Assembly: GCA_963662405.2 (NCBI GenBank)
Contig: CAXXKT010000003.1
Span: 416,001 to 480,000 of the forward strand
Length of the DNA stretch: 64,000 nt
Source: Syntrophales bacterium
GTDB lineage: Bacteria > Desulfobacterota > Syntrophia > Syntrophales > UBA2210
Reading direction: 5' to 3'
Numbering within the stretch: position 1 is the first letter of the stretch; each line of letters starts with the position of its first letter. Positions 2,874 to 21,121 of the stretch are shown here, piece by piece. The translations under genes were made by a program, and so were the position numbers. A model generated the notes under the pieces. That model searched no databases. It was not told the origin of the DNA and was given only the letters and a program-made list of their open reading frames with translations.

Positions 2874-2985
2874 GACATTCCATGAAACCTTGGTATTTAT
2901 AAAGTTTACTATTTCAAAGGAATGATCGGTGAATCGTCATAAGTACGGCTATGGACCTGCCCATACTGCATCGTAGTAAATCTTG

Positions 2986-3627: not shown

Positions 3628-3669
3628 AGGTCCGGTTTAGGATCTCATGGTATTTATATTTTTCGGTGA

Positions 3670-4527: not shown

Positions 4528-4530
4528 CGC

Positions 4531-5169
4531 TTAGACCTCGTTCCTCAGGCGTTCCAGCATTTCCAGGGCCTTTCGTTTGGCTTCCGCATCTTGATCCCGG
4601 ATGGCTTTTTTCAGAAGTCGATCGGCGGCATCGGTCTTTGCGGTGCGATAGTCTGCACGGCTGATTGCGAGATCGACCCAGGCATTATAGCGGAGGCGGT
4701 TCGCGATGGGATCAAAGACCCGCTCGTAATAGATGCTCTTCTGCGAGATGCCGCCAATCCGAAGATTCTCCACCGTCCAGGGCACGGCGTCGGTTACGTA
4801 GCGCCCGATGTCATCGCTGCCGTAATTGCCATGCATCACGGAACTGAATTCACCTCGCGCCTTGACTTCAACTGACTCAAGGAGATTCTTGACGGCCTCA
4901 CTTTTTGCCAGCCGGATCGTCAGGGCGTAATCACTCCCTCCCATGACACCGCCGGTGAAATGAAGACCCTCGTCATTTTCATAGAACGTGGTCCGGCTTG
5001 TCCACTCGGGACGATCAGTCGCGCCGGTCTTTTCCATCACCACCGGCCTGGTGAGCTCCGCCATCGCCTGATTCTGTTTGACTGCCTTGCCTCCTCCACA
5101 CCCGATAAGCACCACGAGGAATGGAACCAAAGACCAACCGACTGCCCATACTGTTACGTGCGTTTTCAT
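4531..5169 (-). CDS. Lipoprotein, LPP20-like
   Basis: Lipobox LIG-C after a hydrophobic leader; RPEW motif followed by LAKSEAVKNL helix; GGAGG RBS upstream. Confidence 0.7.
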   Translation of the reverse strand: MKTHVTVWAVGWSLVPFLVVLIGCGGGKAVKQNQAMAELTRPVVMEKTGATDRPEWTSRTTFYENDEGLHFTGGVMGGSDYALTIRLAKSEAVKNLLESVEVKARGEFSSVMHGNYGSDDIGRYVTDAVPWTVENLRIGGISQKSIYYERVFDPIANRLRYNAWVDLAISRADYRTAKTDAADRLLKKAIRDQDAEAKRKALEMLERLRNEV

Positions 5170-5230: not shown

Positions 5231-5296
5231 GGAAAGTTTTCTCCCCCAGAGATTTCTTTGGTGGATATTCGATTTCTTTTTTGCTACATTTTCACC

Positions 5297-5566
5297 ATGA
5301 AACTGCAACGGTTATCTCCCGAATATCTTTTGGAATTGGGAACCCGCATCAAGACGATACGGACGTACCTGAAATACGATCAGCGGCGGCTCGCCCGGTA
5401 TCTGCAAACCGCCGCCTCCCAGCTCTCGAAAATAGAGGCAGGCAAGGCGGAACCGGGCATCTACCATCTGCTGATGATTAAAAAGCTTGCGGACACAGAC
5501 GACTATTTACGGGAACACCTGACCTGGTCATGGCTGCTCGAAGGCAAAGGGAAAGGGGTCTTTTAG
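5297..5566 (+). CDS. XRE-family HTH transcriptional regulator
   Basis: LGTRIKTIR..DQRRLARYLQTAASQLSKIEAGKAEP is a canonical cro/C1 HTH; ATG at 5297 preferred over the track start. Confidence 0.85.
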   Translation: MKLQRLSPEYLLELGTRIKTIRTYLKYDQRRLARYLQTAASQLSKIEAGKAEPGIYHLLMIKKLADTDDYLREHLTWSWLLEGKGKGVF

Positions 5567-5572
5567 ATTGGT

Positions 5573-6808
5573 ATGGCGCACCGGCATTCGGGAGAAATTC
5601 AGCAAAGGGTCCGGCAGGCAGACAGAGATCTTTGGAATGCCCTGAAGAAGGAATCGACCGTTTCTCTCGTCGAACGAATCGTTGAAAACGCCGATGAGGA
5701 TGCGTTGGCAGTCCTTCATGATACGCGTACCGTTTTCTGCTACATGGGGAAGCGATTAAGGTTTGTCGAATTCCTCAATATACTGAAAGAGAAAAAAAGA
5801 AATGACCTGATAAGGTCCGGTTCCCTGATCGATGTTGATTACGTGGTGGAACGGGTCTATGATCTGACGGTGGCCAAGTTCCAGAATTTTCCCGTAAAGG
5901 ATCAAAAGAAGAAAGATCGAAAGAAGAAAGATCGAAGGAATGAGGAGGAAAAGCCAGATCGAGAATTCGCCGAAAATGTGGATTGCAGAAACTATTTCAA
6001 TGCATTCTTGATCAAGATGGAAGAGGTGCGGCGTGAGGGGAAGATAACATCTGAAATCGATGAGGAACAGGCGGCCGGTGAAATGCTGAAAATTCTGGTG
6101 TTCCGGCACTTCAGGCTTTCACTTAAAGAATGTCTTCGAAACAATGCACACTCTGTCCCTTATCAATGGAAGGTGGCCAGCACGAAAATCACCCTCTACT
6201 ATCCCCGGCATATGGGACCGGATCAATTTAAAACATGGCTTGAAGAAAATATCGACGTTCCTGGACCGAAGACAGATGTGAGATTGGAAAAGAAGCGCAT
6301 ACAACAGCGCATCGATGAAGAACTGAAAACAGGATACAGCGTTTCCTGCGATGAGCCATCTATCAATACTGAATTGAAAAGCGACGACAATCGGGCTCTC
6401 GAGGATCGCGAGGGGCAAAAATTTGTCGTGTCCTTGAGTGAGTGTGTGGCACGGGAAAAATCGGAGCATTTCACAGAACTGCGGCCAGCTATCAGGGCCC
6501 TCGGCTCGAAAGGCGTGTATAATCTGGTCCTCCGCATCTTTGCCGATATAACCGAGGGCGCCTACAACCTAAAAGAGGTCGCACAGAGCTTCGGGCTCAG
6601 CAAGGCATCTCTGAGCCGGTTTGCCGGTCCTGCCTGGTCGGGGAACGCTCGGCAGGAGATCCCCGATCTCTGGGCCAATACCGCCCATGTGCTTGCGGGG
6701 AATACCTTGTTTTCGGAAGTAGTCGAGAATGCAGGATTCGCAGGCGTAATCGATGATGTCTTGACCATGATCGCACCGGGGGAGGAGTGTGAAAATGGAT
6801 ACACGTAA
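5573..6808 (+). CDS. Sigma-factor-like DNA-binding protein (region-4-like HTH)
   Basis: C-terminal LRPAIRALG..VLRIF..EGAYNLKEVAQSFGLSKASLSRF resembles sigma70 region 4; SVSCDEP resembles the SLD-P linker. Region 2 is not clearly recognisable. Confidence 0.5.
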   Translation: MAHRHSGEIQQRVRQADRDLWNALKKESTVSLVERIVENADEDALAVLHDTRTVFCYMGKRLRFVEFLNILKEKKRNDLIRSGSLIDVDYVVERVYDLTVAKFQNFPVKDQKKKDRKKKDRRNEEEKPDREFAENVDCRNYFNAFLIKMEEVRREGKITSEIDEEQAAGEMLKILVFRHFRLSLKECLRNNAHSVPYQWKVASTKITLYYPRHMGPDQFKTWLEENIDVPGPKTDVRLEKKRIQQRIDEELKTGYSVSCDEPSINTELKSDDNRALEDREGQKFVVSLSECVAREKSEHFTELRPAIRALGSKGVYNLVLRIFADITEGAYNLKEVAQSFGLSKASLSRFAGPAWSGNARQEIPDLWANTAHVLAGNTLFSEVVENAGFAGVIDDVLTMIAPGEECENGYT

Positions 6809-7502
6809 GAATCTCTATTTTCTTCCTCTTATTGATGAGGCCCTGGGCAGTCATGAGCCGGAGGAAGCGTTGAAGAATGCCTTCACCGCCATACGCAGAC
6901 TCGGCAGGAAGCCCGAGTATGAAAGAGGATATACCCAGTTCAGGAGATTCATGAAGGCATACGTCGAAGCCTATTCGCACGTGCCCGGGTACGAACTCAT
7001 TATGCACGAAGCCATCTATCATCTGATCGACGATCTGGCCGCGGACACATACGAGGGATCAGAAGAGGAGAAACCGGCGCTCATTGAAGCATTGTCAAGA
7101 AACCCACAATGGCGGACTGCATACGAGCATGCGAAAGAGACACTGGCTGAGTTTCGCGCCCCTTCTCCTGAGTTGGCCATCGAGGTGTTGAAGGATGGCG
7201 AGACGATCGCCTCTCTTCCTGTATCGGAGATCCCCTTCAGCCTGACGGATATCGAGCCGGGGCGCTATACGGTACGTCTCTCCAACGGCAGGGTTCTCTG
7301 GGAGGGCCTCCTGGAAAAGAAGCACCTCCTCTGGTGGGAAGCGTATGGCCAAAGCGATCTTCCGATGGCGGCGAAAACCGAAGAGGATGCCCCTCGACCT
7401 ACGGTATCCGAATCTCTTATGGGCGGCGATGTGACAATGGATGTGATTCCTGATCTTCAAAGCGGGGAGATACGCTTCAGTCATGGAGAGCAAAGACGAT
7501 AA
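6789..7502 (+). CDS. Hypothetical protein, putative anti-sigma / protease substrate
   Basis: 237 aa, overlaps both neighbours by 20 nt; helical N-half, beta-rich C-half (IEPGRYTVRLSNGRVLWEG). The CDS looks real; the function is inferred from position only. Confidence 0.55.
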   Translation: MKMDTRKNLYFLPLIDEALGSHEPEEALKNAFTAIRRLGRKPEYERGYTQFRRFMKAYVEAYSHVPGYELIMHEAIYHLIDDLAADTYEGSEEEKPALIEALSRNPQWRTAYEHAKETLAEFRAPSPELAIEVLKDGETIASLPVSEIPFSLTDIEPGRYTVRLSNGRVLWEGLLEKKHLLWWEAYGQSDLPMAAKTEEDAPRPTVSESLMGGDVTMDVIPDLQSGEIRFSHGEQRR

Positions 7503-9174
7503 CAGGACCATCGGCAAAACAAAGACCGCAATCCTTTTGAAAGACACACGGGAACCGATAGCGATCATCACCGAGATATACGCGCAGGCTACCTCAGCAG
7601 ACCCTGAAGTGAAGATCACTTTTCATGGTCCCGTCACAGTCGAGGACAAAACGATTGTGCACCTTGAAACGGTCATCTTCCCGATCGTCAGCACCATATC
7701 GCATTCTCTCGGCCTTCCATCCCGCAACTTTGACATTTCCATTTCGAATGTGGGCGCCTCGTCAGCGAGAGATCTGGGCCTGAAGATCGCGGGTTTCTCC
7801 GCAGACGTTCCTTTCTTTCTGTCCATGCTCTCCGCCGGCACAGGAGCTGGTCTTCGACAGGATGTGATCGCTACGGGGCACATTGCCTCACTGGCCGGAG
7901 ATGTCGCGCCGGTTCTGGGTATCCCAGCCAAGATGGAAGCCGCCGTCGCTGCCGGCACTATCTCGGAGTTCCTCTTCCCGGATATTGAACATGATATGTC
8001 CGCAGCGCTCCTCATACCGAAAGACGAATTGAGTGCAGCTAAAAAATCCTTCTACCGATACAAAGGGGAAATCGGCCTCACAACCATCAGAGATATCCAT
8101 GACGCGATACAGATCTTTTTCACCGACGATGCCGTCGCCGTGTCTGCCCTTGCGAAGGGATTTTTCGACGGAAAAGCCGAAGCAACAAGGGACAACACCC
8201 CCCTGAACCGATCCGTCGCATTCTTTCTCGATGACAACGAAAATCGTTTCTGGCGCACCTTGAAAGACCTCCTGTTCCGCAAAGAATCCGAAAAGGCACG
8301 ATCCCTCATCCAGACTTTCATCGACTACCATCGTGCGCGAGAACGGTACCCGCGCAATTTCGGCGAGCGGCTGTACCGGCTGGCCATGTCACTGCCGCTT
8401 TTGGTCAGGAAACTCGATGGCCTCTTCCCGCTTCTCTCGGTCGATCAATGCATCGCCCTGTCTCGCCATGCGAAGCCAGCGGACCACACCGATGTCCAGC
8501 TGCTCTATCGACTGACATCACCGAATGAATTCACGAAACACATAGCTGACGAGAGTTCGGAAGCCGCAGGTACAGCACATGAAGAGGATCCGGAAGATCA
8601 GATGGTACGGAAGGTCCTGTTTGAACTGAGCGAGGTACATCTTGCACGAAAGATCGGCATGCCTCTGGATGAAGCACGGGCAAGCTATTTCCCCGGTACG
8701 ATCACCATAAAGGATGCTTTTGAATTCAACCAGGCAATTACCAGCTTCTATATTCACCTGATGCGGCATACGCAGTCACCCGAAGGTCATGTGTCATGGG
8801 ACGCCGCCGCATCCGAGGCATTAGATCGGTTGGAGGATTCATTTCGCAACAGGGGAGGCTATGCGACCGCCCTGACCGAAGCAAAAACGGGTATAAAGGG
8901 AGGCCTCCGTTTCGTATTCGACGTGATGACCGATAGCGAAAAATCGGTCATGAAGGCAAAGTATACGGCCATGATTCTCAAGGAGGCCATCGGTTCACTC
9001 GACTGGGAGGCGAAGGTTCGATGCGCCCGGCATATGCAGGATAGATACGGGCGGCATTTGCCGGAAGCATTCAAGGAAATACAACCCGAACAGCTTGCCC
9101 ATCGTTTGGAAGAAGCTCTGCGGTTTCTGTCGGAAGGAGAGAAAGATATAGATCACTGGCTGAGAACACACTAA
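7483..9174 (+). CDS. Lon (S16) protease catalytic domain fused to a C-terminal helical repeat-family domain
   Basis: GFSAD...VIATGHI..GDVAPVLGIPAKMEAA matches the Lon Ser-Lys dyad pattern (GPSAG..MTGEI..G.VLPIGG..K..AA); no AAA+ Walker motifs seen. Confidence 0.75.
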   Translation: MESKDDNRTIGKTKTAILLKDTREPIAIITEIYAQATSADPEVKITFHGPVTVEDKTIVHLETVIFPIVSTISHSLGLPSRNFDISISNVGASSARDLGLKIAGFSADVPFFLSMLSAGTGAGLRQDVIATGHIASLAGDVAPVLGIPAKMEAAVAAGTISEFLFPDIEHDMSAALLIPKDELSAAKKSFYRYKGEIGLTTIRDIHDAIQIFFTDDAVAVSALAKGFFDGKAEATRDNTPLNRSVAFFLDDNENRFWRTLKDLLFRKESEKARSLIQTFIDYHRARERYPRNFGERLYRLAMSLPLLVRKLDGLFPLLSVDQCIALSRHAKPADHTDVQLLYRLTSPNEFTKHIADESSEAAGTAHEEDPEDQMVRKVLFELSEVHLARKIGMPLDEARASYFPGTITIKDAFEFNQAITSFYIHLMRHTQSPEGHVSWDAAASEALDRLEDSFRNRGGYATALTEAKTGIKGGLRFVFDVMTDSEKSVMKAKYTAMILKEAIGSLDWEAKVRCARHMQDRYGRHLPEAFKEIQPEQLAHRLEEALRFLSEGEKDIDHWLRTH

Positions 9175-9188
9175 TCGAGGAGGAGAAA

Positions 9189-9770
9189 ATGTCTACGATA
9201 GATAGTCTTTGTGATGCCCTGGATGAAGTGGCAATTGCTCAACATGTGGGGATTGCCCATGATGAAGCACGGGCTTTTTACAGCCCGCGGAAAAACACGG
9301 TTTCCAGTTTTGATGAATTCAGCGATATGATCGGCGAGTATTACAGCTATCACATCGGGAAATGCGTCGTTCAAGGCGGCAGAATTGCGAGCTATGAAGC
9401 GGTGGGCCGGGCCAGCGAAATTGTGGAGAATGCATACAAACGCCAGGGAGGCAATCTCATGTCCGCCTACCGGAATGCGAGCGATGGAACCAACGGGGGC
9501 ATGAGGGTCATATTGGATGTAATCGCCGATCGGCTGAAGGAAGAATCAGTCGAACGATATGTCCGGCATGCCTTTAACAGGCATGTCGATCCGAGCTCAT
9601 GGGATCAGAAAGTAGGGATCATCCGACAATTTATTGACCGGAACCGGCATCTGCTTGGTTCGGCTATCGATTCTTCGCATCCGGAACGGTATGCGCAGAA
9701 TTACGACGAACTCATACGAGCGTTCATGGATGCACTGAAAAAATCATCGAACCTCTTCAGAAAATATTAG
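9189..9770 (+). CDS. Hypothetical helical protein, paralogue of the Lon-fusion C-terminal domain
   Basis: GAGGAG RBS; aligns by eye over its full length with the last ~190 aa of 7483..9174. Confidence 0.8.
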   Translation: MSTIDSLCDALDEVAIAQHVGIAHDEARAFYSPRKNTVSSFDEFSDMIGEYYSYHIGKCVVQGGRIASYEAVGRASEIVENAYKRQGGNLMSAYRNASDGTNGGMRVILDVIADRLKEESVERYVRHAFNRHVDPSSWDQKVGIIRQFIDRNRHLLGSAIDSSHPERYAQNYDELIRAFMDALKKSSNLFRKY

Positions 9771-9781
9771 GAGCAGGGGCC

Positions 9782-10351
9782 ATGTCGACACGGTTGGAGG
9801 AACTTATCGAGAGTATTGATCCGGTAAACATTATAGACAGGGTATCCATCGCTGTAGATGAAGCCTTCAATTCCTTTAAGTATGACAGACCCATAGGGTC
9901 ATTCGACGATTATGAGAAATACATGTCCGAATTTGTGCAACACATAGAACAGGTCGTCATCGGTTACAGGACGACCCATCCGGACGCCAGGGATTTTTTC
10001 TGGACACGGTATTCGAATCTTGTAAACAGGAAACAGGGACCGGATGCATGGAAGATGAACTACGAAAAGGTCCTTACCGGTAAGAGCGGCGGAACATACC
10101 AGCTTCTCAAAGATGTGGCTGCTATGATCCTGGAGGAGCAAAGCGGGCGACAGATCTCGACAAGAGTCTGGAACTTCTGGAATTCCCTGGACAACGATGA
10201 AAAGCTGGATACGGTGAATGAATTCTTGCGTAAATTCGGGCGAATTTTGCCGTCTGAGTATACCAGTGGGGTTTACTTGAAAATAAATTTCCCCCAGGTG
10301 CTGGAGAAATATCCGCAATTGCTGTTGGAGATCAGACGTGCTGTGGGGTAG
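9782..10351 (+). CDS. Hypothetical helical protein, second stand-alone paralogue
   Basis: Shares VDEAF, SFDDY, TGKSGG and LDNDEKL motifs at equivalent positions. Confidence 0.75.
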   Translation: MSTRLEELIESIDPVNIIDRVSIAVDEAFNSFKYDRPIGSFDDYEKYMSEFVQHIEQVVIGYRTTHPDARDFFWTRYSNLVNRKQGPDAWKMNYEKVLTGKSGGTYQLLKDVAAMILEEQSGRQISTRVWNFWNSLDNDEKLDTVNEFLRKFGRILPSEYTSGVYLKINFPQVLEKYPQLLLEIRRAVG

Positions 10352-10428
10352 GGGAACAAAAAAAGGCTACAAGCAGTTTTTATTGCAGATCTTACGTCTT
10401 ATAGCTTTGCATAAACAAAGGAGGTGAC

Positions 10429-11577
10429 TTGATGCATCAAATTATTTTCTATCCCGTGGGTAACGGTGATACCAGCCAAATCATACTAGAGAATGGCAAG
10501 CGAATCCTGTTCGATTTTAGGCATCTGAAGAAAGCGGAGGACGGAAAGGAACCGGAAATTGATTTGGCTGCTCGCTTAAAAAAAGAATTGAAGGATTGCG
10601 ATAGGACGTCTTTCGATGTCGTCGCCTTCACACATGGAGACGCTGATCACATCGAGAACAGTACGGAATTCTTTGAATTACTCCATGCTGAGAAGTATCA
10701 TGGTGATGGTCGAATCAAAATTAATGAGCTCTGGGTCCCCGCGGCAATGATCCTCGAAACGGCGGCGAATGATGAACAGAGCGCCGAATTCGTCACCTGG
10801 AGGCAAGAGGCTCGTTACAGATTGAAAGAGGGGAAAGGCATCAGGGTTTTCTCAAAGCCAGACAAGCTGAAAGAATGGTTGAAAGAAAACGATCTAACGG
10901 TTGACTCCCGGCGGCATATGATCACCGACGCAGGACAACTTGTTCCCGAATTCACCATAGGGAACGATGGAGTTGAATTCTTCTGCCATTCCCCATTTGT
11001 CATGAGCGTTGATGATTGCGACGAAGGTCAAAGAAATGAAGCTGCCCTCATCTTCAATGTCCGTTTCCAAGCAGGCTCAAACATTTTTGACTATTTTGCA
11101 GTCGGCGACTCCGAATGGGAAACACTGGAAGAAATCATCCAAACAACTAAGAATCATAATAATCAGGATCGGCTTGCATGGGACATCTACAGCTTGCCGC
11201 ATCATTGTAGCTATAAAACCCTGAGCGACGAAAAAGGGGAAAAGGAGACTATACCCAAGCCTTTGATCAAAGAGTTTCTATTGCAGGGAAAAGACAATGC
11301 CTACATCGTTAGTTCTAGCAACCCTATCGAAGATACGAAGGAAGGTCTGGAACAAACACAGCCACCTCATATCCAAGCGAAAAAGTGCTACGAGCGTTAC
11401 CTTACGGAAATCGGAGGGGCAAAGCTTCTGGTCACTATGGAGGAACCGAATAGAACAAAGCCAGAGCCTCTGATATTTGAAATCGATAGTAACGGTATCA
11501 GCCGAGGAGGGAAAATCCTAGGCTCAGGAATAACCGTCATAACCTCCAGACCAGCACCGAGGGCTGGTGTAAAATGA
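10429..11577 (+). CDS. Metallo-beta-lactamase-fold (ComEC/Rec2-like) hydrolase with C-terminal PRAG tail
   Basis: FYPVGNGD, FTHGDADH, VGD and LPHHCS motifs; GGAGGT RBS. Confidence 0.85.
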   Translation: MMHQIIFYPVGNGDTSQIILENGKRILFDFRHLKKAEDGKEPEIDLAARLKKELKDCDRTSFDVVAFTHGDADHIENSTEFFELLHAEKYHGDGRIKINELWVPAAMILETAANDEQSAEFVTWRQEARYRLKEGKGIRVFSKPDKLKEWLKENDLTVDSRRHMITDAGQLVPEFTIGNDGVEFFCHSPFVMSVDDCDEGQRNEAALIFNVRFQAGSNIFDYFAVGDSEWETLEEIIQTTKNHNNQDRLAWDIYSLPHHCSYKTLSDEKGEKETIPKPLIKEFLLQGKDNAYIVSSSNPIEDTKEGLEQTQPPHIQAKKCYERYLTEIGGAKLLVTMEEPNRTKPEPLIFEIDSNGISRGGKILGSGITVITSRPAPRAGVK

Positions 11578-13961
11578 CTGTCGAATTCATCTTTTTCGGA
11601 GATCCATATCCTGACCTCAGCCCTGATAATTTGAGGCAGAATGTATCAAAAAAGATTTTAAAGCTCTGCAAGGCAAGCAAAGAGTTTCGGATCGTTGAGC
11701 TGCGGTATAGAAGTCAAGATGCAAGGGTTTCTGACATCATCATCGTCGATTGTATGAACGATCAGATCCCTACTAGGAATCCCCACGGCATTAAAGTGCG
11801 GGAAAGGCTCGCTCTTGTTTTTACCCCAGAGATACTGCCAGAAGTAAGGGCTCTAAGGGCTAACTTTCCGATACTCCCACATATGATTTACGTCTCGCCG
11901 GGTGAACCAGCATTGCTGTGCCTGTATACGGACACGTGGCAGGCACTGGAGAGGACCTGGACACCACATAAACATCTGCAGCAGATACTATCGTGGCTCT
12001 CTGATTCGGCCAAGGGAACACTGCACCGGGGTGATCAACCCTTAGAGCCACTCTATTTCGAGAGTCTTTTTGAGATCGTATTGCCCCCTGATCTTGATGA
12101 AAAGGTTGAAAACCCCAATTTTGTCTTAATCCCTCAAGCCATAAAGATTGAGCGACCACCTTTGAATTTCAAAGTAGTTCGATGCTATTTCCAAGATAAA
12201 AAGTTGATATCAGCACAAGGGAAAGTGAAGGATAAAGTGTCAAGGATACCACTAATCGGAGCTCCCTCCGGGAAATACATATTCGTTGATTCATTGTTTG
12301 TACCACATGAGAGCAATGAAAATAAGAAGCTACCTCGCTTTGAAATCTTGACGGTTACCGGCCCATCTATAGTGCACGGCATTATCGAGCAGTATCCTCG
12401 GACACTAGGAGAGCTTGACGATCAAATGATGGCGCGAGGTGGTTCAATCCTAGAGTCGCTGAAAAATGTAATTCAAGAGAAAGCTCATGGCGGAATAATC
12501 TGTGAGGATTCAAGTGAATGCTTACTCATCCTGTCAATGCAACTGAAACGCGCAGCTGATGCCCAGCCTGAAGAAAAACACAAGAAAGCATTTGAAATCA
12601 TATCCGATCTTGCCGGACTCGGTGAAAAAACAGGTGCGTTGACGAAGAGCCCCACTGACGAAAAGTGGTACAATATTCCTACAGATAACAAGCAAGACTG
12701 GCGCAAAATCAAGATATGGCCCATCGAGGTTAAAACCGCCAATACGCAGGATTTAGCCCGTGTTGCGTCTGATGTTGACTTATTGACGGCAGATTTCATG
12801 GGAGTGTTAGCCGGTGTTGGTGCCTTGGGAGGATCTTTGGCAGAAATCTGGTCAAAGGAACGCTGGGGGGGGTGGAGCTTCATCGATCCGGATATTGTAA
12901 AATCACACAACATTATACGCCATATTGCCAGAGACTTTCATGTCGGTGCTTTTAAAGCCGATGTAGTTAAAGACATGGTGGCATACAATTATCAAGACGG
13001 TTATTATCATGCCTTCTCCATTCACAGAAGCGCCAATGATTTTAATTCAGATGTTGTTAGAGAAACTATTTCAAAAGCAGAGTTTCTTGTGGATGCCACA
13101 ACGACCATAGAGATACCTCGTGATTTAGCTCAGAAAGATGATGTGCCTCGCTCAGTGTCCGTATTCCTAACTCCTAGTGGGAAAGGGTCCGCTCTTCTAA
13201 TGGAATCGGAGGATCGTTTGCTGAGGTTGGATGCCCTTGAAGCACAGTATTATCGTGCTATTGTCAATGAGGAATGGGGAAAAGATCATTTAGAGGGACA
13301 CAAAGGAAATATAAGAGTCGGAGCCGGATGCCGCGATGCATCCGCCATTATCTCCTATGAAGCTATCCAGTTACATGCTGCCGTAATAGCACGCCAAGTT
13401 AGGCTATTACGAGATAAGGCTGCGGCACGCATCCAGGTGTGGTCTGGCAACTCTGTTACAGGTGCGCTTGCAGCTTATACGATTCCCGTTTATGCAGTCA
13501 ATAGATTTAACTGCGATGGTTGGCGTGTGATCATGGACTATGGCTTAAAAGAAAAACTGGCTGCAATAAGGATGTCTCACCTTCCCAATGAGACCGGGGG
13601 TATTATACTTGGGTATATAGACCACAAATTGAACCATATTTACATTGTTGATGTCCTTAACGCACCTATTGATAGTGAGGCAGATCTGACAGGGTTCACA
13701 AGGGGAGTACAGGGCTTGAGGGCTGCACTCGGTGAGGTTTGCCAGAGGACAGCTGGCATCGTCGGCTATATTGGCGAATGGCATTCCCATCCAGAATTTA
13801 CATCTGCCTATCCTAGCTCACTCGACCGCACTCTTATCAAAGAACTTGCAGCTGGTTTGGAACTAGACGGACATCCTGCTTTGATGATCATCGTTGGACG
13901 AACCGGAGAAGTTTCTGTGTCGGTTAAAGAAGCAGGGACTCGTGAATGTACAGTTATGTAA
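11574..13961 (+). CDS. Prokaryotic ubiquitin-system E2 - E1(ThiF) - JAB fusion protein
   Basis: E2-like LCLY; E1 GVGALGG, DPDIVKSHNIIRH and GAGC; JAB ETGG...YIGEWHSHP..PSSLD; ATGA overlap with the MBL gene. Confidence 0.88.
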   Translation: MTVEFIFFGDPYPDLSPDNLRQNVSKKILKLCKASKEFRIVELRYRSQDARVSDIIIVDCMNDQIPTRNPHGIKVRERLALVFTPEILPEVRALRANFPILPHMIYVSPGEPALLCLYTDTWQALERTWTPHKHLQQILSWLSDSAKGTLHRGDQPLEPLYFESLFEIVLPPDLDEKVENPNFVLIPQAIKIERPPLNFKVVRCYFQDKKLISAQGKVKDKVSRIPLIGAPSGKYIFVDSLFVPHESNENKKLPRFEILTVTGPSIVHGIIEQYPRTLGELDDQMMARGGSILESLKNVIQEKAHGGIICEDSSECLLILSMQLKRAADAQPEEKHKKAFEIISDLAGLGEKTGALTKSPTDEKWYNIPTDNKQDWRKIKIWPIEVKTANTQDLARVASDVDLLTADFMGVLAGVGALGGSLAEIWSKERWGGWSFIDPDIVKSHNIIRHIARDFHVGAFKADVVKDMVAYNYQDGYYHAFSIHRSANDFNSDVVRETISKAEFLVDATTTIEIPRDLAQKDDVPRSVSVFLTPSGKGSALLMESEDRLLRLDALEAQYYRAIVNEEWGKDHLEGHKGNIRVGAGCRDASAIISYEAIQLHAAVIARQVRLLRDKAAARIQVWSGNSVTGALAAYTIPVYAVNRFNCDGWRVIMDYGLKEKLAAIRMSHLPNETGGIILGYIDHKLNHIYIVDVLNAPIDSEADLTGFTRGVQGLRAALGEVCQRTAGIVGYIGEWHSHPEFTSAYPSSLDRTLIKELAAGLELDGHPALMIIVGRTGEVSVSVKEAGTRECTVM

Positions 13962-13988
13962 TTTCTTCCTGGGGGAAAGGAGGACCAT

Positions 13989-14486
13989 ATGAAGGATATC
14001 CTAAGCAAAATTTCGTCATACAATCTTTTCAATTACCTTCTACCGGGCATTATTTTTGCGGTTCTTGCCGAACGAATTACAGTTTACAAGATAATCCAGA
14101 GCGACATAATCGTTGGGCTATTTCTCTACTATTTTTTAGGCTTGGTGATCAGTCGTATAGGATCGTTAATAATTGAGCCCGCTATGAAGAAGGTCTCTTT
14201 CGTAAAGTTTGCTTCATACAAAGACTATGTCAGTGTTTCCGCTAAGGACCCGACTTTAGAAACATTATCTGAAGTCAACAACATGTATAGGACATTATGT
14301 GCCCTTTTTTTAATGCTCCTCGCGACTAAAGCTTTCGAATCCATCACGATGTGTGTCAATATGAGCGGCAAAATATCAGCATACATCCTTTTTGTTGTGC
14401 TTTTAGTGCTATTCGCACTTTCCTACCGTAAGCAAACAAAATACATCACCAAACGCATAGAGGCTGGCAAAGATGAGCATCGTTAA
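13989..14486 (+). CDS. Small 4-TM membrane protein
   Basis: 165 aa with four hydrophobic segments; GGAGGA RBS; overlaps the next gene. Confidence 0.8.
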   Translation: MKDILSKISSYNLFNYLLPGIIFAVLAERITVYKIIQSDIIVGLFLYYFLGLVISRIGSLIIEPAMKKVSFVKFASYKDYVSVSAKDPTLETLSEVNNMYRTLCALFLMLLATKAFESITMCVNMSGKISAYILFVVLLVLFALSYRKQTKYITKRIEAGKDEHR

Positions 14487-15328
14487 ATCGCTGTCCGTCG
14501 GAGACGGGGACATGTTTTATATCAAGCACGGTACAGACAATTTTACGATCATTGATTGTTGCTTGGAAGAGGCATGCCGTGAAGAGATCGTATCAGAGTT
14601 GAAACGCGAAAGCGCTGATAAATCGATTAAGCGGTTTATCTCAACCCACCCGGATGACGACCATACTGAACTTTTACTGTGTACGGAATGAGGCGACCAA
14701 GAAAGATTACACTGATGATTTCGACCGGTATTGCAGTTTAAGGGACTCCGACAAGGCCTTTTACCTCTATGAAGGCTGTACGCGAAAGTGGTTAAACAAG
14801 AACGACGAAGGAGAACACGGTAGCTCCGGGATTACTATTCTGTGGCCAGACAGGACAAACGAGTATTACAAGGCCGCTTTGGTGGCTGCCAAAAATGGAA
14901 AGGATCCAAATAATATCTCGCCGATTATCAAGTACAATCTGCGTGGTGGAGCCACATTCTTGTGGATGGGCGATATGGAATCCGATTTTATGGAGAACAT
15001 TGAGGATAGTCTCATCCTTCCGGCGGTAGACATATTATTTGCACCACACCATGGGCGAGACAGCGGCAAGATCCCACAGTCACTTCTTGATCAAATGTCT
15101 CCTAAGATCATCCTTATCGGGGAAGCGCCATCAATGCATCTGAATTATTACGACGACTACAACTCTATCACTCAGAACTCTGCAGGGGATATCATATTTG
15201 AGTGTACTGGTACACTGGTCCACATATACGGTTCTAATGACTCATACGAAGTTGATTTTTTAGAGGACTACTTATGTGACAATACTCATGGGTACTACAT
15301 CGGAACGCTCGACTCCTTTCAGCGATAA
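14473..15328 (+). pseudogene. ComEC-like MBL-fold hydrolase split by a frameshift/deletion near 14664
   Basis: N-part SVGDGDMF...FISTHPDDDH and C-part LNFYCV...MGD...APHHG lie in different frames. Confidence 0.75.
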
Positions 15329-15367
15329 TAAAAAAACCTTCACATATTTTTCAAAAAGGCACTATCT

Positions 15368-15395
15368 TGAAACAATAATTCGTTCCCCTCCGCTT
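15368..15395 (+). promoter_or_regulatory. Candidate alternative-sigma promoter TGAAACAAT-N12-TCCGCTT (copy 1)
   Basis: Same bipartite motif and spacing as 18542..18569; both copies are intergenic and upstream of operon heads. Confidence 0.6.
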
Positions 15396-15417
15396 ACTGG
15401 GATAGAAAGGAGGTTCC

Positions 15418-17889
15418 ATGAGCGAAGAAAAGGCGATTATCAAAATGGCAATGCCCTTGATGCTCAGAGCAAGGGTTGAAAATTTTTTGCATGATGAAAA
15501 CAGAAAAGGGTGTGATCCCCGGCTGTTTCCCGCTCCCGTTTCTCTGGAGCCGCCCTTTTCCCCCATTACCTATTCCGATAATTTTCAGAACAGTTCATTG
15601 TGTGATGAAATATCCTACGAGGCAATTCCTGACAGCAGGCAGTTGGTACGTCTTCAGGTTTGGCTTTCCCCGGATCAGAAATATGATTGGCTGAAGACAG
15701 AGATCTTTCTGAAGCAGCTGTCCCAGATATCTCATCGCATCGGATTCGAAATCATAGGCAACAGCGGGAAAATCCATATTGGTTTTTTGGTTCATCAAGA
15801 TGATATCCCCTTTCTTGACATCAGTTGCCGGGGTATGTTCGAGCGATGCGAATTAACACAAGCCCCATCAGTGGAAGGATTTGATGCATTAGTAGACCCC
15901 AAAGCACAGGTCAGCTTCATGGACTATTATCCGCCTCCTCCCTATTCACACTTGCTGACCTCTCCCAATGAATTCAAAGTGAGTCCATATCGATCGCTCA
16001 TTGCGGCTCTCATGACGATTGATCCTCCCGATTGGGGGTTTTACCAGGCACTGTTTCAACCGGTGCATCCCGATCACAACTGGCACAGGAATGTCGAAAC
16101 GCTTCTGGATGTCGAATATATGTTCAAGCTCATAAGCAGCCAAAACTCTCAGCGATACCTTCAGCAAGCGCCTTCCGGCGATCTTCGACAGATGGCCAGA
16201 GAGGTGGAGACCAAGTCACATAACGATAAGCCATTTTATTTTCTTGCCTGCAGGGTAGGTGCAATTTCATATCGAGATCCGCAGCGATATTTGAAGTCCC
16301 TGTCCGTGTTTTTTAACTTATTCCAGCATGGCAGAAGACCCATGGGGGTTATAACTGACCGTGAATATCGTCTTCACCTATCAATCGAAGAGATCAAGAC
16401 CATGTTCCAGCGTGGAGTAACCTATCGACCGGGATTCCTGGTAAATTCGTTTGAACTTTCAGGCCCTGTCCACATCCCCAATGCCGACATATTGGAATTC
16501 AGAACCCCTCGACTCAATCTGATCAATACCGTACCGGTTCAAAATGAGGATATCCATGAAGGGACCCCGATCGGGACCTACGAATATACCGGCACGGTTT
16601 ACCCAGTGTGTATTCCCTTGCATCTGCGACCCCGCTCTACCCATATCATTGGAAAATCCGGAATGGCCAAATCCACGACAATGGCGCATATGATCCTCGA
16701 TGATATCAATCGAGGTATGGGCGTTGCGGTAATCGATCCCCATGGGGACCTTATCGAAGACCTGTTGATCCGCATTCCTGAAGAACATATCGAAAGAACG
16801 GTCTACTTCGACCTGACCATCCCGGATTATGTCCCTATCTGGAATCCTCTCCAGAGATCGAGGGGACAGGACATCAGCCGTACAACCGAAGACATCATCT
16901 CTGCACTGAAAACGGTATTCCATTCCGGCTGGGGAGACCGAATGGAACATCTTCTCCGCCACGGACTGTATGCCCTGCTGCATATTCCGGGAGGCACCCT
17001 CCAGGATCTTTCCAACCTTCTCTTCAAGAGGGACAAGAAACGGTTGATTCGCGATGAACCTTTATTAAAGCTGCTTTTGCAGGCTGTGGATAATGATGTA
17101 TCAAGACGCTTCTGGGAATTTCATGTGCGAAATTATACTGCCGAGGCCTTCGACCCTCCGAAGCATAGACTGGATAAAATCCTTCTGTCAGGGAAGGCGG
17201 CGGTGATGCTTTCTCAACCCGACAACATGATCGATTTCAGACCAATCATGGATGAAGGCCGTATTCTTCTGGTGAAGCTTTCCCTGATAGGGAGAGAGCT
17301 GATGAAGGTCCTGGGCTGCTTCATTCTGTCTCTTCTGCATTTGACCGCCCTGGGAAGAAGCGACGTCCCGGAGGATCGCCGGAGACCGTTTCAGATATAT
17401 GTCGATGAGGCCCACCGGTTCGTCACTGATACCCTGGAAGACCTGATCGTCGAAACGAGAAAATTCAATGTGGGGTTGACGCTGGCACATCATTTTTTCA
17501 GCCAGTTCGGAAATATAAAGGTCGATGCCTTGTCCAGTGTGGGCACGACTATCATCATGAATGTCGATAGAAAGGACGCTGCATACCTCGTAAAGGACCT
17601 CAGGGAAGAAGTCTCCGCAAACGACATCACACAACTCAATCTGGGCGAAGCCATTGTGCGCATCGGCACCGATGTCGTCAAAATCAACACTCTGGGAAAA
17701 TTGACTGTTCCCTCGGACAACTTCAAAGATCAGATACTGCAACATTCATTGAGTCATTACTATCAACCAGAAAAGCTTGTCCGGGAGCGTATCCGAAACA
17801 AGAACGATCGATACAGTGTAGCCAATACTCATGCCATTCCCCCCAAACAGTACGATGAAGAAGAACTCACCTATGATGACGGATTCTGA
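15418..17889 (+). CDS. VirD4/TraG/HerA-superfamily ATPase (type IV coupling protein-like)
   Basis: HIIGKSGMAKST (Walker A variant), VIDPHGDL, IYVDEAHRF (Walker B), RKFNVGLTLAH; AGGAGG RBS. Confidence 0.85.
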   Translation: MSEEKAIIKMAMPLMLRARVENFLHDENRKGCDPRLFPAPVSLEPPFSPITYSDNFQNSSLCDEISYEAIPDSRQLVRLQVWLSPDQKYDWLKTEIFLKQLSQISHRIGFEIIGNSGKIHIGFLVHQDDIPFLDISCRGMFERCELTQAPSVEGFDALVDPKAQVSFMDYYPPPPYSHLLTSPNEFKVSPYRSLIAALMTIDPPDWGFYQALFQPVHPDHNWHRNVETLLDVEYMFKLISSQNSQRYLQQAPSGDLRQMAREVETKSHNDKPFYFLACRVGAISYRDPQRYLKSLSVFFNLFQHGRRPMGVITDREYRLHLSIEEIKTMFQRGVTYRPGFLVNSFELSGPVHIPNADILEFRTPRLNLINTVPVQNEDIHEGTPIGTYEYTGTVYPVCIPLHLRPRSTHIIGKSGMAKSTTMAHMILDDINRGMGVAVIDPHGDLIEDLLIRIPEEHIERTVYFDLTIPDYVPIWNPLQRSRGQDISRTTEDIISALKTVFHSGWGDRMEHLLRHGLYALLHIPGGTLQDLSNLLFKRDKKRLIRDEPLLKLLLQAVDNDVSRRFWEFHVRNYTAEAFDPPKHRLDKILLSGKAAVMLSQPDNMIDFRPIMDEGRILLVKLSLIGRELMKVLGCFILSLLHLTALGRSDVPEDRRRPFQIYVDEAHRFVTDTLEDLIVETRKFNVGLTLAHHFFSQFGNIKVDALSSVGTTIIMNVDRKDAAYLVKDLREEVSANDITQLNLGEAIVRIGTDVVKINTLGKLTVPSDNFKDQILQHSLSHYYQPEKLVRERIRNKNDRYSVANTHAIPPKQYDEEELTYDDGF

Positions 17890-17890
17890 A

Positions 17891-18502
17891 ATGCCAGGCG
17901 ATTGCAAAAGCATCGTTGAGACAGTAATCGGGCTTCTCGAAGAGGACACCATAGCCCGGGAAGTAGAATATCCTGTCAACCAGGCAACAAAAGAATTTGA
18001 ATTCGCCTTTGAGGAACCCATAACTCCGGCAGGATTCAACGGGATCATTGCATCCTTTGTCACACACATCAATAAGAGAGGCTTGCGTTTTCCCAGAATG
18101 TTGACCGATCGGGAAGCTCTGGCGGAAGCAGTGTATTTACTGGACCGTTATTCCGACGCGGAAGGGCCCGATCGGTATGCGGCGATCATGACTATCGTCG
18201 GAACCAACGGCCGGGAGGAAATGGAGAAGAAACTTCTTATGCTGGCAGAGATTATAAAAGTAATCGAGAGAGAAAAATATCGCCAGTGGGTGTTTCATCA
18301 CCATTTCCGGAGCCTGGAATGGGAATGCCGGTGCCGAATCGTATCGCTGCTTACAAAATCGCTGTCTCATAGTGCCTTTCCCGAATTGGAACGTCTCAAA
18401 CCGGCACAGCTGGTGGAATGCTTCGAAGAACTGATTGACATAGATCTTATCGGTCAAAACATCGTGAAACAGCTCGGCTGTGAAAAGGAGAAACAAATAT
18501 AG
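17891..18502 (+). CDS. Hypothetical helical protein, third stand-alone paralogue of the repeat-family domain
   Basis: ATG 1 bp after the ATPase stop; LEEDTIAREV, FNGIIASFVTH, GTNG, SLEWE and LKPAQLV align with the other copies. Confidence 0.72.
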   Translation: MPGDCKSIVETVIGLLEEDTIAREVEYPVNQATKEFEFAFEEPITPAGFNGIIASFVTHINKRGLRFPRMLTDREALAEAVYLLDRYSDAEGPDRYAAIMTIVGTNGREEMEKKLLMLAEIIKVIEREKYRQWVFHHHFRSLEWECRCRIVSLLTKSLSHSAFPELERLKPAQLVECFEELIDIDLIGQNIVKQLGCEKEKQI

Positions 18503-18541: not shown

Positions 18542-18569
18542 TGAAACAATGCCTACGGTTCATCCGCTT
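18542..18569 (+). promoter_or_regulatory. Candidate alternative-sigma promoter TGAAACAAT-N12-TCCGCTT (copy 2)
   Basis: Matches 15368..15395; lies upstream of primase-xis-integrase. Confidence 0.6.
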
Positions 18570-18620
18570 CATAGGTAAAGACCTTTGACGAACAAGGGAA
18601 TCTGACCGGTGAGGCTACCT

Positions 18621-19631
18621 ATGAAATCCGTTAGCCACAAAAGAACGACTGCATCAAAGATCGGTCTTTTTCGATCAGTCTTTTCCGGTTTGCCCCATGT
18701 CTATGGAACATATGATGTTGATACAAAACGTTCCTGGCAAGTAAAGGAATCGGTAACGGCCAGGACTATCCTTGATCATCTCAAGGGCAATAAACATTTC
18801 GGCCTCTATCTGCTTGTTAACGACACTATCTGGGCCATTGCAGCCGATTTCGATCACCATGACCCGACAACCCCTTTAGACTTTATCAGGAAAGCCGGGC
18901 ATTATCGATTGCCCGCCTACCTCGAGATCAGCAAATCCAAAGGATTCCATGTATGGATATTTTTCCAGGAAGGTGGGGTCAAGGCATACAAAGCCCGGTT
19001 AGTGGTGAAGGCCATTCTTGAAGAAATAAAAGCCGTCGACACAGAAGTATTTCCGAAACAGGACTTTCTTGATTCACTGTCTTCTTACGGCAATTTCATC
19101 TACACTCCCTTATTCGGCCGGCTTGTTCCGGAAGGCAGGACTGTATTTGTCAATGTGGATACCTTGAAAGCCTTTGAAGACCAATGGAAGTTTCTCGCAA
19201 CCATTCAGAAGGTCGATGAAGCCCTTCTGGATGAGGTTATTGATATAAACAACCTCTCACGATCAAATCAAACGGACCTGAAAAAAGTCTCTCTAATAGA
19301 TAGCCCTGTACATTATCATACAGCCCTCCCACCCTGCATTCAGAGCATGCTCCAGAACGGCGTGAGGAGATTCCAGCGCTCCAGTTGCTTCAGATTAGCC
19401 GTGCAACTCAGAAAAACAGGCTTACCTTTTGATGCTACACTCGCGGTTCTCCAGGCCTGGTCACTCAAAAACAAACCGGAAGATGGAAAGCGGATAATTA
19501 CTGCCGAGGAAATCATGGAACAAACATTGTGCGCGTACCGTAAATACTATTCAGCGTATGGATGTGAAACGCCCGAAATGAAACCGTTTTGTCACGAAGA
19601 CTGCCCGGTAAAAAAGAAAATAAGCATTTGA
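18621..19631 (+). CDS. Archaeo-eukaryotic primase/polymerase (TOTE-like AEP) with Cys-rich C-terminal domain
   Basis: AADFD, YLEISKSKGFHVWIFF and EVFPKQ..YGNFIYTPL; C-terminal LPPC..YGC..FC..DC. Confidence 0.8.
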   Translation: MKSVSHKRTTASKIGLFRSVFSGLPHVYGTYDVDTKRSWQVKESVTARTILDHLKGNKHFGLYLLVNDTIWAIAADFDHHDPTTPLDFIRKAGHYRLPAYLEISKSKGFHVWIFFQEGGVKAYKARLVVKAILEEIKAVDTEVFPKQDFLDSLSSYGNFIYTPLFGRLVPEGRTVFVNVDTLKAFEDQWKFLATIQKVDEALLDEVIDINNLSRSNQTDLKKVSLIDSPVHYHTALPPCIQSMLQNGVRRFQRSSCFRLAVQLRKTGLPFDATLAVLQAWSLKNKPEDGKRIITAEEIMEQTLCAYRKYYSAYGCETPEMKPFCHEDCPVKKKISI

Positions 19632-19643
19632 GGAAGAGAGAAC

Positions 19644-20030
19644 ATGGAAGTGGATTTCGATCTTGAAGCAATCTATGGACATTCTATCAGTTCCAAAGAA
19701 CTTGCCAAATTTCTTGGACTTGACCGGCGCACAATAGTTAAGTATGCTGCCTTATGGGGTGGTGTGGAAGTTGCACCCGGCATCTGGCGGTTCTTTGAAA
19801 AGAGAATAGAGGAGGTCCTCAATGCCGAGCAAAGTTTTGAAAAGAGGAACATTGCGATACCGGGCAAATGTAAATGTGCAAGGCCAGAAGAGGCAAAAGT
19901 TGTTTCCAGACGACAGCAAGAAGTCTTATCAGGCGGCTCTCTTTTGGGAAAAAGAAACAAAAATCGAATTGGAGAAGCAGTTATCCCAGATAAATTCGGT
20001 ATCTTTAGCGATAGGACAATGGTCGAATGA
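19644..20030 (+). CDS. Excisionase-like HTH DNA-binding protein
   Basis: SSKELAKFLGLDRRTIVKY..GIWRF is a winged-HTH pattern; lies directly upstream of and overlaps the integrase. Confidence 0.65.
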   Translation: MEVDFDLEAIYGHSISSKELAKFLGLDRRTIVKYAALWGGVEVAPGIWRFFEKRIEEVLNAEQSFEKRNIAIPGKCKCARPEEAKVVSRRQQEVLSGGSLLGKRNKNRIGEAVIPDKFGIFSDRTMVE

Positions 20031-20946
20031 GTACTTGACAGAAGCTGAAAACCGATTTGTCAGAGATACCTTCAAAGAAAAAAAAGCTGCCTTTGCTAAG
20101 TTTTACAAAGATGCAGGCCTACCACGCGAATTTCTCATTCACGATCTCACAATTACAATTTGCAGGAAATTTCTGCTAAAGCAAATGAAGGAGAGATCAG
20201 GCTATGCCGCCAATAAGGACAGAAAAAATCTTGGAGCCGCATGGAGATGGGGCTTTGATAACATGGAGGGATGGCCTAAAGGCGTAAACCCCTTTTTAGC
20301 TATCAAAAAGTTTCCCGAAAAGAGAAACCCGCGATATGTGCCACCTGAAGATGACTTCTGGAAGGTCTATGAACAGGCACAAGGTCAAGACAAAGTCATG
20401 CTGTTAGTATTTCTTCATCTGGCAGCCAGAAGATCTGAGGTATTCCGGATGAAGTGGGCCGATGTTGATTTTAAAAACAACCGCATCTGTCTCTGGACCC
20501 AGAAGCGAATGGGCGGTCATACAGAATATGACTGGCTGCCTATGACGTCTGATCTTCGGAACGCGTTACTGCAGTGGTGGCAAGAACGGCTCATGCAAAC
20601 AGGCGTTGATAAAGAACATGTCTTTATCTGCCTTGCAGAAACTTGCTTTTGCGAAGACTATTACGGAAAGCCCTTTACAGTCAGGCAACATTTTATGGAA
20701 AGCCTGTGTAAGAAGTCGAAAGTAAAACCTTTTGGGTTCCATGGAATAAGACATTTGACTGCATCAATCCTTTACAAGAAAGGCTATCCTTTGGCCGTCA
20801 TCCAAGCGATATTGAGACACGCAAATCCGAATACGACAGCGCGTTACATTCATAGCCTTGGATTAGAGGAAACGAGGGAAGCACTTGAGGAAGGTCTGAA
20901 AGGTCCTGCTGAAGTGATTGAATTTCAGAAAACAAGTATCATATAA
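19822..20946 (+). CDS. Tyrosine recombinase / integrase
   Basis: ARRSEV (R), FHGIRH (HxxR), LRH and TARY (Y) catalytic set; GAGGAGG RBS. Confidence 0.93.
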   Translation: MPSKVLKRGTLRYRANVNVQGQKRQKLFPDDSKKSYQAALFWEKETKIELEKQLSQINSVSLAIGQWSNEYLTEAENRFVRDTFKEKKAAFAKFYKDAGLPREFLIHDLTITICRKFLLKQMKERSGYAANKDRKNLGAAWRWGFDNMEGWPKGVNPFLAIKKFPEKRNPRYVPPEDDFWKVYEQAQGQDKVMLLVFLHLAARRSEVFRMKWADVDFKNNRICLWTQKRMGGHTEYDWLPMTSDLRNALLQWWQERLMQTGVDKEHVFICLAETCFCEDYYGKPFTVRQHFMESLCKKSKVKPFGFHGIRHLTASILYKKGYPLAVIQAILRHANPNTTARYIHSLGLEETREALEEGLKGPAEVIEFQKTSII

Positions 20947-21046: not shown

Positions 21047-21121
21047 TGGTAGTCCCACGGGGAATTGAACCCCGGTTTCCGGCGTGAGAGGCCAGCGTCC
21101 TAACCGCTAGACGATGGGACC
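21047..21121 (-). tRNA. tRNA-Glu (anticodon CUC)
   Basis: Reverse complement GGTCCCATCGTCTAGCGGTTAGGACGCTGGCCTCTCACGCCGGAAACCGGGGTTCAATTCCCCGTGGGACTACCA folds as a cloverleaf with encoded CCA. Confidence 0.95.

Follow-up and report, generated by a model that had tools for sequence, protein, structure and literature searches.

A helical domain in four copies beside a Lon-type protease and a sigma-like factor in an integrative element of a Syntrophales bacterium

What is a domain doing that occurs four times within ten kilobases, once on a protease and otherwise free? The question is raised by a stretch of 64,000 nucleotides from a Syntrophales bacterium (GenBank assembly GCA_963662405.2, contig CAXXKT010000003.1, positions 416,001 to 480,000, forward strand), which was analysed as a whole and is called the window here. 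In it, the original prediction had described a helical domain of about 190 residues in four diverged copies. We call this domain D. We found that D and the gene block around it are real, conserved and, as far as we searched, undescribed, and that the block lies at the integrase end of an integrative element of ~113 kb at a tRNA-Glu gene. We propose, and give the proposal an even chance, that D is an adaptor, soluble and self-associating, through which this element controls a transcription switch worked by proteolysis. The four copies, in window coordinates, are the following.

8599..9174, + strand: D1, the D domain at the C-terminus of a Lon-like protease (residues 373-563)
9189..9770, + strand: D2, stand-alone, the best-conserved copy
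9782..10351, + strand: D3, stand-alone
17873..18502, + strand: D4, stand-alone, overlapping the stop codon of an ATPase gene; the most diverged copy and the sister of D1

Family alignments of 48, 63, 61 and 45 sequences (D1, D2, D3 and D4, respectively), taken from 67 related loci, were compared with HHalign, a comparison on which the claim of a common domain depended. All six pairs of family profiles were significant (Prob 98.9-100, E 1e-45 to 3.6e-17, 181-194 columns), whereas eight of eight control comparisons of the D classes with two neighbouring families gave Prob <3%. Between single sequences, Smith-Waterman z values (1000 shuffles) were 32 for D1-D2, 13.7 for D1-D4, 13.3 for D2-D3 and 10.5 for D2-D4; those for D1-D3 (3.3) and D3-D4 (1.7) were not convincing by themselves. 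Members of the D4 family had been picked partly by their likeness to D and also by position, and D3-D4 is the weakest link; this link was confirmed by an independent pair of alignments (Prob 99.2, E 1.2e-19). The alignment blocks quoted in the original prediction were found in all four translations at the reading frames it had named; 'VGTNG', its third block for D4, corresponds to no conserved D4 motif. Judged by their profiles, the four D regions are true paralogues. The same profiles suggest that D1, D3 and D4 share the fold of D2, the copy that was modelled.

In a quick tree, each class was represented by 20 rows drawn from the window and 19 of the 67 loci, and 21 divergent D sequences brought the total to 101 rows. 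D1, D3 and D4 each formed one starred clade with 20/20 rows, the D2 rows grouped with 11 of the divergent sequences, and D1 and D4 were joined as sisters (SH-aLRT 95). Mean pairwise identity within a class was 38% for D3, 36% for D1, 27% for D4 and 58% for D2, the last figure being inflated because the loci were collected with D2 patterns. The open reading frame (ORF) of D4 extends from 17831 to 18502, and its likely start is the ATG at 17873. No hidden further copy was found in 13 other families of the element (HHalign Prob ≤2.3%).

The AlphaFold2 (AF2) model of D2 was confident and all-helical, with ten helices (predicted local distance difference test score, pLDDT, 92.7), which bears out the helical character claimed at the outset. 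Fold searches with this model showed no clear neighbour, with a best Foldseek match in the PDB of only E 0.88, a best VIA match of Z 5.5 at a root mean square deviation (rmsd) of 7.4, and a best E of 0.81 (no match) against viral folds in BFVD. That D2 lacks a fold neighbour does not mean that its fold is new. Nor did the D regions belong to any family in Pfam, PHROG, NCBIfam or PADLOC; the D profile reached a best E of 0.2 against the PDB, and a D2 query of the ESM Atlas gave no usable match. Homologues are nevertheless numerous: D2 had 189, and a search with its profile returned 1343 representatives at E≤1e-3 (50% clustering). D is rare: among 401 genomes from the phylum, five, with the present one, carried any copy, and none was found in the viral contigs, plasmids or phages searched; one divergent D query led to no genome locus. 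Fusion partners among the matches listed were Lon, one unnamed domain of ~180 residues and singleton in-operon fusions (150 of the 1343 representatives were surveyed, and the long-protein search ran to at least 8000 candidates). Two long-protein matches that might have indicated modular reuse were rejected, both being single-contig fusions of genes from the same block. The unnamed domain is N-terminal to D in L099:889-2777 and P0219, where a second D on the opposite strand and ThiF, JAB and resolvase genes adjoin.

The genes around the D copies follow a fixed order: sigma-like factor, putative anti-sigma factor, Lon-D1, D2, D3, ATPase, D4, primase and integrase. From the sigma-like gene to the primase, this order recurs in Desulfobacterota, Planctomycetota, Verrucomicrobiota, Ignavibacteria and other lineages. 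All four D copies were present in 41/67 related loci and in 27/31 of those with long flanks, and the loci missing a copy mostly reach a contig end. Some rearrangements were seen: in L024 and L035, D2-D3 are relocated ahead of the sigma gene, and in L052:3142-7613 the Lon-D1/D2 segment is duplicated. The features of the block that bear on the function of D are these.

5573..6808, + strand: atypical sigma70-like factor, 411 aa, with a sigma2-like region (28-190), an insertion and a sigma4-like helix-turn-helix (HTH; ~283-380)
6789..7502, + strand: putative anti-sigma factor and Lon substrate, 237 aa, with an invariant A194-A195 in (L/M)AA(D/E)T; its role is predicted
7483..9174, + strand: Lon-type (S16) protease with a helical middle and D1, and no AAA+ module
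15368..15393, + strand: promoter-like motif TGAAAC-N16-CCGC, 50 bp before the ATPase start
15418..17889, + strand: VirD4/TrwB/HerA-like P-loop ATPase, 823 aa, with an acidic Y-D-x-F tail
18542..18567, + strand: promoter-like motif TGAAAC-N16-CCGC, 67 bp before the primase, the top-scoring site in the genome

The closest PDB matches of the protease were Lon protease domains (E 1.7e-9), and the catalytic dyad, G-x-S106 and K150, was kept in 43/43 orthologues. The gene before it encodes the 237-aa protein, in which Ala194-Ala195 was invariant in 34/34 members and which gave a weak Atlas lead to zf-HC2 clusters (0.82). From its model (pLDDT 85.5), the 411-aa protein looks like a sigma70-like factor. 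Its top five VIA rows were sigma-factor entries with Z 6.2-7.2 (best match Z 7.2, rmsd 2.5, 90 residues), it aligned with region 4 of SigR at Z 5.1 (rmsd 2.6, 65 aligned), and sigma chains dominated its Foldseek list, but with E>0.05. Matches to it were found in 42/67 loci.

The bipartite motif was first spotted by eye in the spacers between D4 and the primase. There, GAAA-N17-CCGC occurred in 31/44 cases; shuffled spacers gave 0.16, and when the gap was set to ten other lengths the count was 0-2. The count of 31/44 is in-sample, whereas that before the ATPase (35/54 loci) is out of sample. It was absent before D2 (0/60), D3 (0/60), Lon (0/46), sigma (0/38), anti-sigma (0/39) and D4 (0/44), the starts of these genes being estimated from typical lengths. 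With a matrix built from 49 foreign sites, the sites at window 18539, window 15365 and before parA ranked first, third and fifth genome-wide; the second-best site, C1:1739729, lies inside a host regulator gene and was taken as background. A sigma70 consensus scan (29 vs 20.6±4.6) was uninformative. The genes marked by the motif are the ATPase, primase/integrase and parA/relaxase genes. D4 also comes under the motif, whereas D1-D3 go with the sensor genes, beyond its control. A bipartite motif with fixed spacing lends indirect support to the prediction that the 411-aa protein binds the RNA polymerase core and directs initiation. In L061, L066, L015 and L018 the second half reads CCAC instead of CCGC; L066 and L061 have CCAC at both sites together with a divergent sigma2 segment, and the two may have co-varied in these loci. 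A motif-like sequence inside the sigma gene of some loci, absent here, overlaps conserved Cys-Arg codons. The original prediction had left out this explanatory context, both the proposed relay of sigma factor, anti-sigma factor and Lon and its promoter motif.

A relay of this kind has been described in type III CRISPR immunity, where CalpL is a SAVED-Lon protease, CalpT an anti-sigma factor and CalpS an extracytoplasmic-function (ECF)-like sigma factor (bioRxiv 2024.05.08.593097). According to that preprint, CalpL needs to form filaments and cuts the 'LAAA' of CalpT after the second Ala, leaving a degron that ends in LAA. The block shares with it an ATPase-less Lon with a Ser-Lys dyad, an adjoining substrate-like protein with (L/M)AA and an adjoining sigma-like factor. 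It differs in that SAVED was not found on the protease (Pfam, NCBIfam, PADLOC), D1 standing in its place, and that three free paralogues of this sensor-position domain are present. Furthermore, the 34 members of the 237-aa family contain neither MazF-like nor DUF2080 domains and have only the LAA-type motif in common with CalpT, no CRISPR or cyclase was seen, and the predicted output is a set of mobile-element genes. Searches of the PDB gave no sequence match to the CalpL or CalpT entries.

We consider it likely that the sigma-like factor, the putative anti-sigma factor and the Lon protease form such a relay here, and suggest the following course. The element encodes, at the sequence level, a Lon-type Ser-Lys protease without an ATPase, with D1 fused to it. 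On a signal, D1 would assemble with free D2 and D3, clustering and activating the protease domains in the way that SAVED filaments activate CalpL. Lon would then cut the 237-aa protein after (L/M)AA195, creating an Ala-Ala C-degron, and host proteases would clear the remainder. The freed sigma70-like factor, as the presumed reader of the motif that we found, would drive ATPase-D4, primase-xis-integrase and parA-parB-relaxase, after which the element would be bound to replicate, excise and be mobilised. More speculatively, D4, a protease-free sister of D1 made only after the switch, would feed back, the likelier role being that of a decoy by which signalling is shut down.

Within this scheme, the part of D as the homotypic activating scaffold of the relay could equally prove right or wrong. 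The original prediction had offered homotypic interaction, nucleoprotein coat and export by the ATPase as three possibilities. The first fares best, with indirect support: D is fused to Lon in one copy and free in the others, forms old classes at fixed positions and varies from one to seven copies among loci (seven in L100). D was not recognisable as a death-fold domain (about 190 aa, no Pfam or fold match); the D2 model has ten helices where the death fold has six, and no death-fold row appeared among the Foldseek and VIA matches listed. By analogy, a Lon-bearing D, two free D and an induced, enzyme-free sister of D1 would fit a proximity-activation scaffold with feedback. The full feedback model, D4 included, is tentative. 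We would likewise lean against, while still entertaining, the idea that a D2/D3 scaffold polymerises with D1 and frees a private sigma factor, with sigma-induced D4, tied to the coupling ATPase, closing the loop. Similarly doubtful is a D signalosome with the logic of an inflammasome that arose on its own from a DNA-transfer accessory protein and determines when the element moves.

Several points weigh against the adaptor reading. The 411-aa protein had no match in the sequence libraries or profiles, and its assignment depends on middling Z scores (best 7.2). The 237-aa protein showed no homology to CalpT or to solved anti-sigma factors (Pfam on 34 members, PDB), and its cleavage by Lon is putative, as is the binding of D to D. 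Elements with a single D, described below, keep it without any protease, and D fused to varied effectors, as known adaptor domains are, was not found among the matches listed. Each of five host genomes contained the strict motif 12-18 times, compared with 2-6 times for its reverse, and it is possible that a host sigma factor reads it instead. Finally, no mating-pair genes or VirB4 were recognised among the element ORFs scanned or, with PF03135, across the genome; a divergent channel might be formed by unnamed membrane proteins together with two further HerA-like ATPases.

Other known systems resemble parts of the block. Like effector-associated domains (EADs) and bacterial death-like domains (Kaur et al. 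2021, PMC8195603), D is helical and repeated, once on an enzyme and otherwise free, for which homotypic bridging would be the natural reading; unlike them, it is ~190 aa long, has no Pfam or fold match, was not seen on varied effectors among the matches listed and belongs to the backbone of a mobile element. As in ICEBs1, where ImmA destroys the regulator ImmR (PMC5812530), a protease of the element would destroy a regulator and so switch on excision and transfer genes, but here the predicted target is an anti-sigma factor rather than a repressor, the protease is of the Lon type, and D rather than RapI/RecA would act as the gate. D4 recalls CARD-only proteins (PMC3775265) as an enzyme-free duplicate of the protease's recruitment domain, an analogy without homology in which the decoy role of D4 is putative. 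Taken by analogy, the system would work like CalpL-CalpT-CalpS and serve a purpose like that of ICEBs1 ImmA/ImmR, while being a member of neither. We found no description of such a system in the mainly open-access literature; the supplements of Kaur et al. could list the domain. CRISPR immunity has relays of protease, anti-sigma and sigma factor in which oligomerisation is the gate. Here one seems to have been assembled independently, round an unmatched domain, and coupled to the life cycle of a mobile element that occurs in sulfate reducers, Planctomycetota and further phyla that have been little studied. If true, this would mean a new adaptor fold, a new route by which integrated elements decide on excision, and a small orthogonal set of sigma factor, promoter and protease. 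The proposal lends itself to direct testing, since it names the catalytic residues (S106, K150), a promoter sequence and a predicted cut site, after A195.

Of the rival explanations, the one that survives best makes D an accessory of the coupling-type ATPase, similar to TraM of the F plasmid, that binds the acidic aromatic C-tail and connects the pump with the relaxase or with the substrate; through its fusion to D, the Lon protease could then dock on the ATPase machine or prune it. We judge both parts unlikely. The ATPase matched DUF87, TrwB_AAD_bind and T4SS-DNA_transf weakly and phrog_5156 at E 2e-34; its Walker A motif, GKSGMAKST, has Ala where the family consensus has Gly. TraM is a helical accessory that binds the acidic, Phe-ending tail of TraD (PMC3159463), and here a Y-D/E-x-F/L tail was present in 39/47 ATPases, with a related pattern absent from seven of seven control families. 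However, in 36 of the 39 the DNA of the tail holds an out-of-frame ATG where D4 usually starts, so an overlap of genes could explain its conservation, which is therefore only a lead; the three ATG-free tails and the loci L101 and L102, which have no overlap, argue for selection on the protein. L101 and L102, two similar 14-kb contigs from one metagenome, have the order kinase, relaxase, ATPase, single D and integrase, and G049 has ATPase, D, xis and integrase, with no Lon-D or sigma match in its 170-contig assembly. Neither sigma nor Lon was found in the sequenced DNA of the single-D loci. These simpler elements suggest a transfer-linked origin, and D probably began as a single accessory beside a relaxase and a coupling-type ATPase. 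Against a TraM-like function, neither a ribbon-helix-helix or other DNA-binding head nor a TraM-like fold was seen for D in the fold searches, and the co-transcription of D1-D3 with the sigma and anti-sigma genes would be left unexplained.

Alternatively, D could be a sensor of a ligand or modification (a nucleotide, a phospho-site or a ubiquitin-like tag) in the position of SAVED in CalpL. We regard this as improbable, and equally so its extension in which the element's kinase/WD40 or E1/E2/JAB genes feed D. The place of D1, C-terminal to Lon, would suit a sensor, 17 other loci have a kinase and 21 have WD40, and kinase, FHA and PP2C genes stand beside a single D. The invariant polar residues of D2 (D25, R28, H55, D110, K117) would suit it too, but they are not common to all four classes; no ligand-binding fold was matched, and three free copies suit a scaffold better. 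Sensing is compatible with the adaptor reading as its input step.

Export by the ATPase, another of the original suggestions, survives as a minor possibility, and that D proteins are secreted or transferred substrates carrying a signal into neighbouring cells is quite unlikely. Basic C-tails act as type IV signals. The C-terminal tails of D1-D3 are basic (median +2 to +3 over the last 15 residues), and D2 ends in FRRL in 38/62 cases. However, D4, which is co-expressed with the ATPase, has no basic tail, primase tails are as basic as those of D1-D3, and no secretion channel was recognised among the element ORFs scanned.

Still less probable is that the block, instead of switching mobility, serves in anti-phage defence or abortive infection. 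Its nearest analogues are immune relays and defence cargo is inserted in it here, but the motif marks genes of the ATPase, primase/integrase and parA/relaxase, the inserts at this place vary and are mostly non-defence, and D and the sigma, anti-sigma and Lon proteins had no PADLOC match; a phage-triggered escape of the element is possible. A coat for the element's DNA, or a particle, made of D proteins can hardly be right, although small, multi-copy products beside a pumping ATPase and a primase might suggest one. These soluble proteins range from acidic to neutral, with a median pI of 5.5-6.6 and a net charge of -1 to -6; the D2 model matched no viral fold, and D was not seen in the viral contigs, phages and plasmids searched.

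The remaining features of this part of the window are as follows.

5258..5566, + strand: XRE-type HTH regulator (Pfam HTH_19, E 1.3e-7), non-core, in three other loci
10429..13961, + strand: 6A-MBL anti-phage cargo, an MBL protein and an E2/E1/JAB fusion (NF058524 and NF058523 above cut-off)
13989..15328, + strand: PDC-M48 A/B cargo (PADLOC E 2e-65 and 7e-98)
18609..19631, + strand: AEP (TOTE-type) primase (PF22548, E 3e-35)
19644..20030, + strand: excisionase-like HTH (HTH_17, E 6.5e-4; phrog_2907, E 0.004)
19822..20946, + strand: tyrosine integrase (PF00589, E 4e-23)
21047..21091: 45-bp attachment (att) repeat at the 3' end of tRNA-Glu(CTC), the tRNA being 21047-21121 on the minus strand

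D3 and the ATPase lie within 300 bp of each other (<=300 bp) in 43/54 loci, and the 6A-MBL and PDC-M48 genes are therefore inserted cargo here; the 6A-MBL genes had no match in the 67 related loci. The gap between D3 and the ATPase promoter (10352-15367) holds varied inserts in 11/54 loci, elsewhere lectin/Lcl proteins or a MoxR-vWA pair and mostly non-defence. PDC-M48B (14473-15328) is split between two reading frames near 14650, by a frameshift or an assembly error. In 13/67 relatives, although not here, a ribonucleotide reductase follows the primase (for example, L013:14673-16979).

The hallmarks of an integrative element are all present, namely integrase, excisionase and att repeats at a tRNA, together with a relaxase (Replic_Relax, E 9e-17) and the coupling-type ATPase. 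The rest of the element contains parA-parB-Replic_Relax, two more HerA-like ATPases, a kinase/WD40/JAB/E2/ThiF operon and a gas-vesicle cluster. That operon, conserved as a second unit (G000:C3:362876-377892, minus strand, L005), encodes a Cdc6-like AAA protein, a Zn-ribbon protein, WD40, a Ser/Thr kinase-Sel1 protein, JAB, E2-like and ThiF proteins, a 959-aa HerA/FtsK-like ATPase and a 171-aa coiled-coil protein. Many relatives have kinase and WD40 genes directly upstream of the sigma gene, and these may supply the input signal. The gas-vesicle cargo (L007, G000:C3:399576-414068) comprises three GvpL/F genes, GvpG, GvpK, a GvpA-like gene and AAA and ArsA-like ATPases. No cas genes were found among the element ORFs scanned, where one PD-(D/E)XK nuclease gave a weak Cas4-like score. 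On the minus strand of the window at 1710-5169 are four unnamed hydrophobic or lipoprotein-like genes; one, of 387 aa, is seen again before the sigma gene of L060, L061 and L066, and a divergent transfer channel could include it. The second 45-bp att copy lies 113 kb upstream, at C3:323968-324012. Contigs compared across attR revealed no joint, a result that says nothing about excision. To its left, G000:C3:323900-323967 looks by eye like the end of another element, which suggests that islands are arranged in tandem at this tRNA-Glu.

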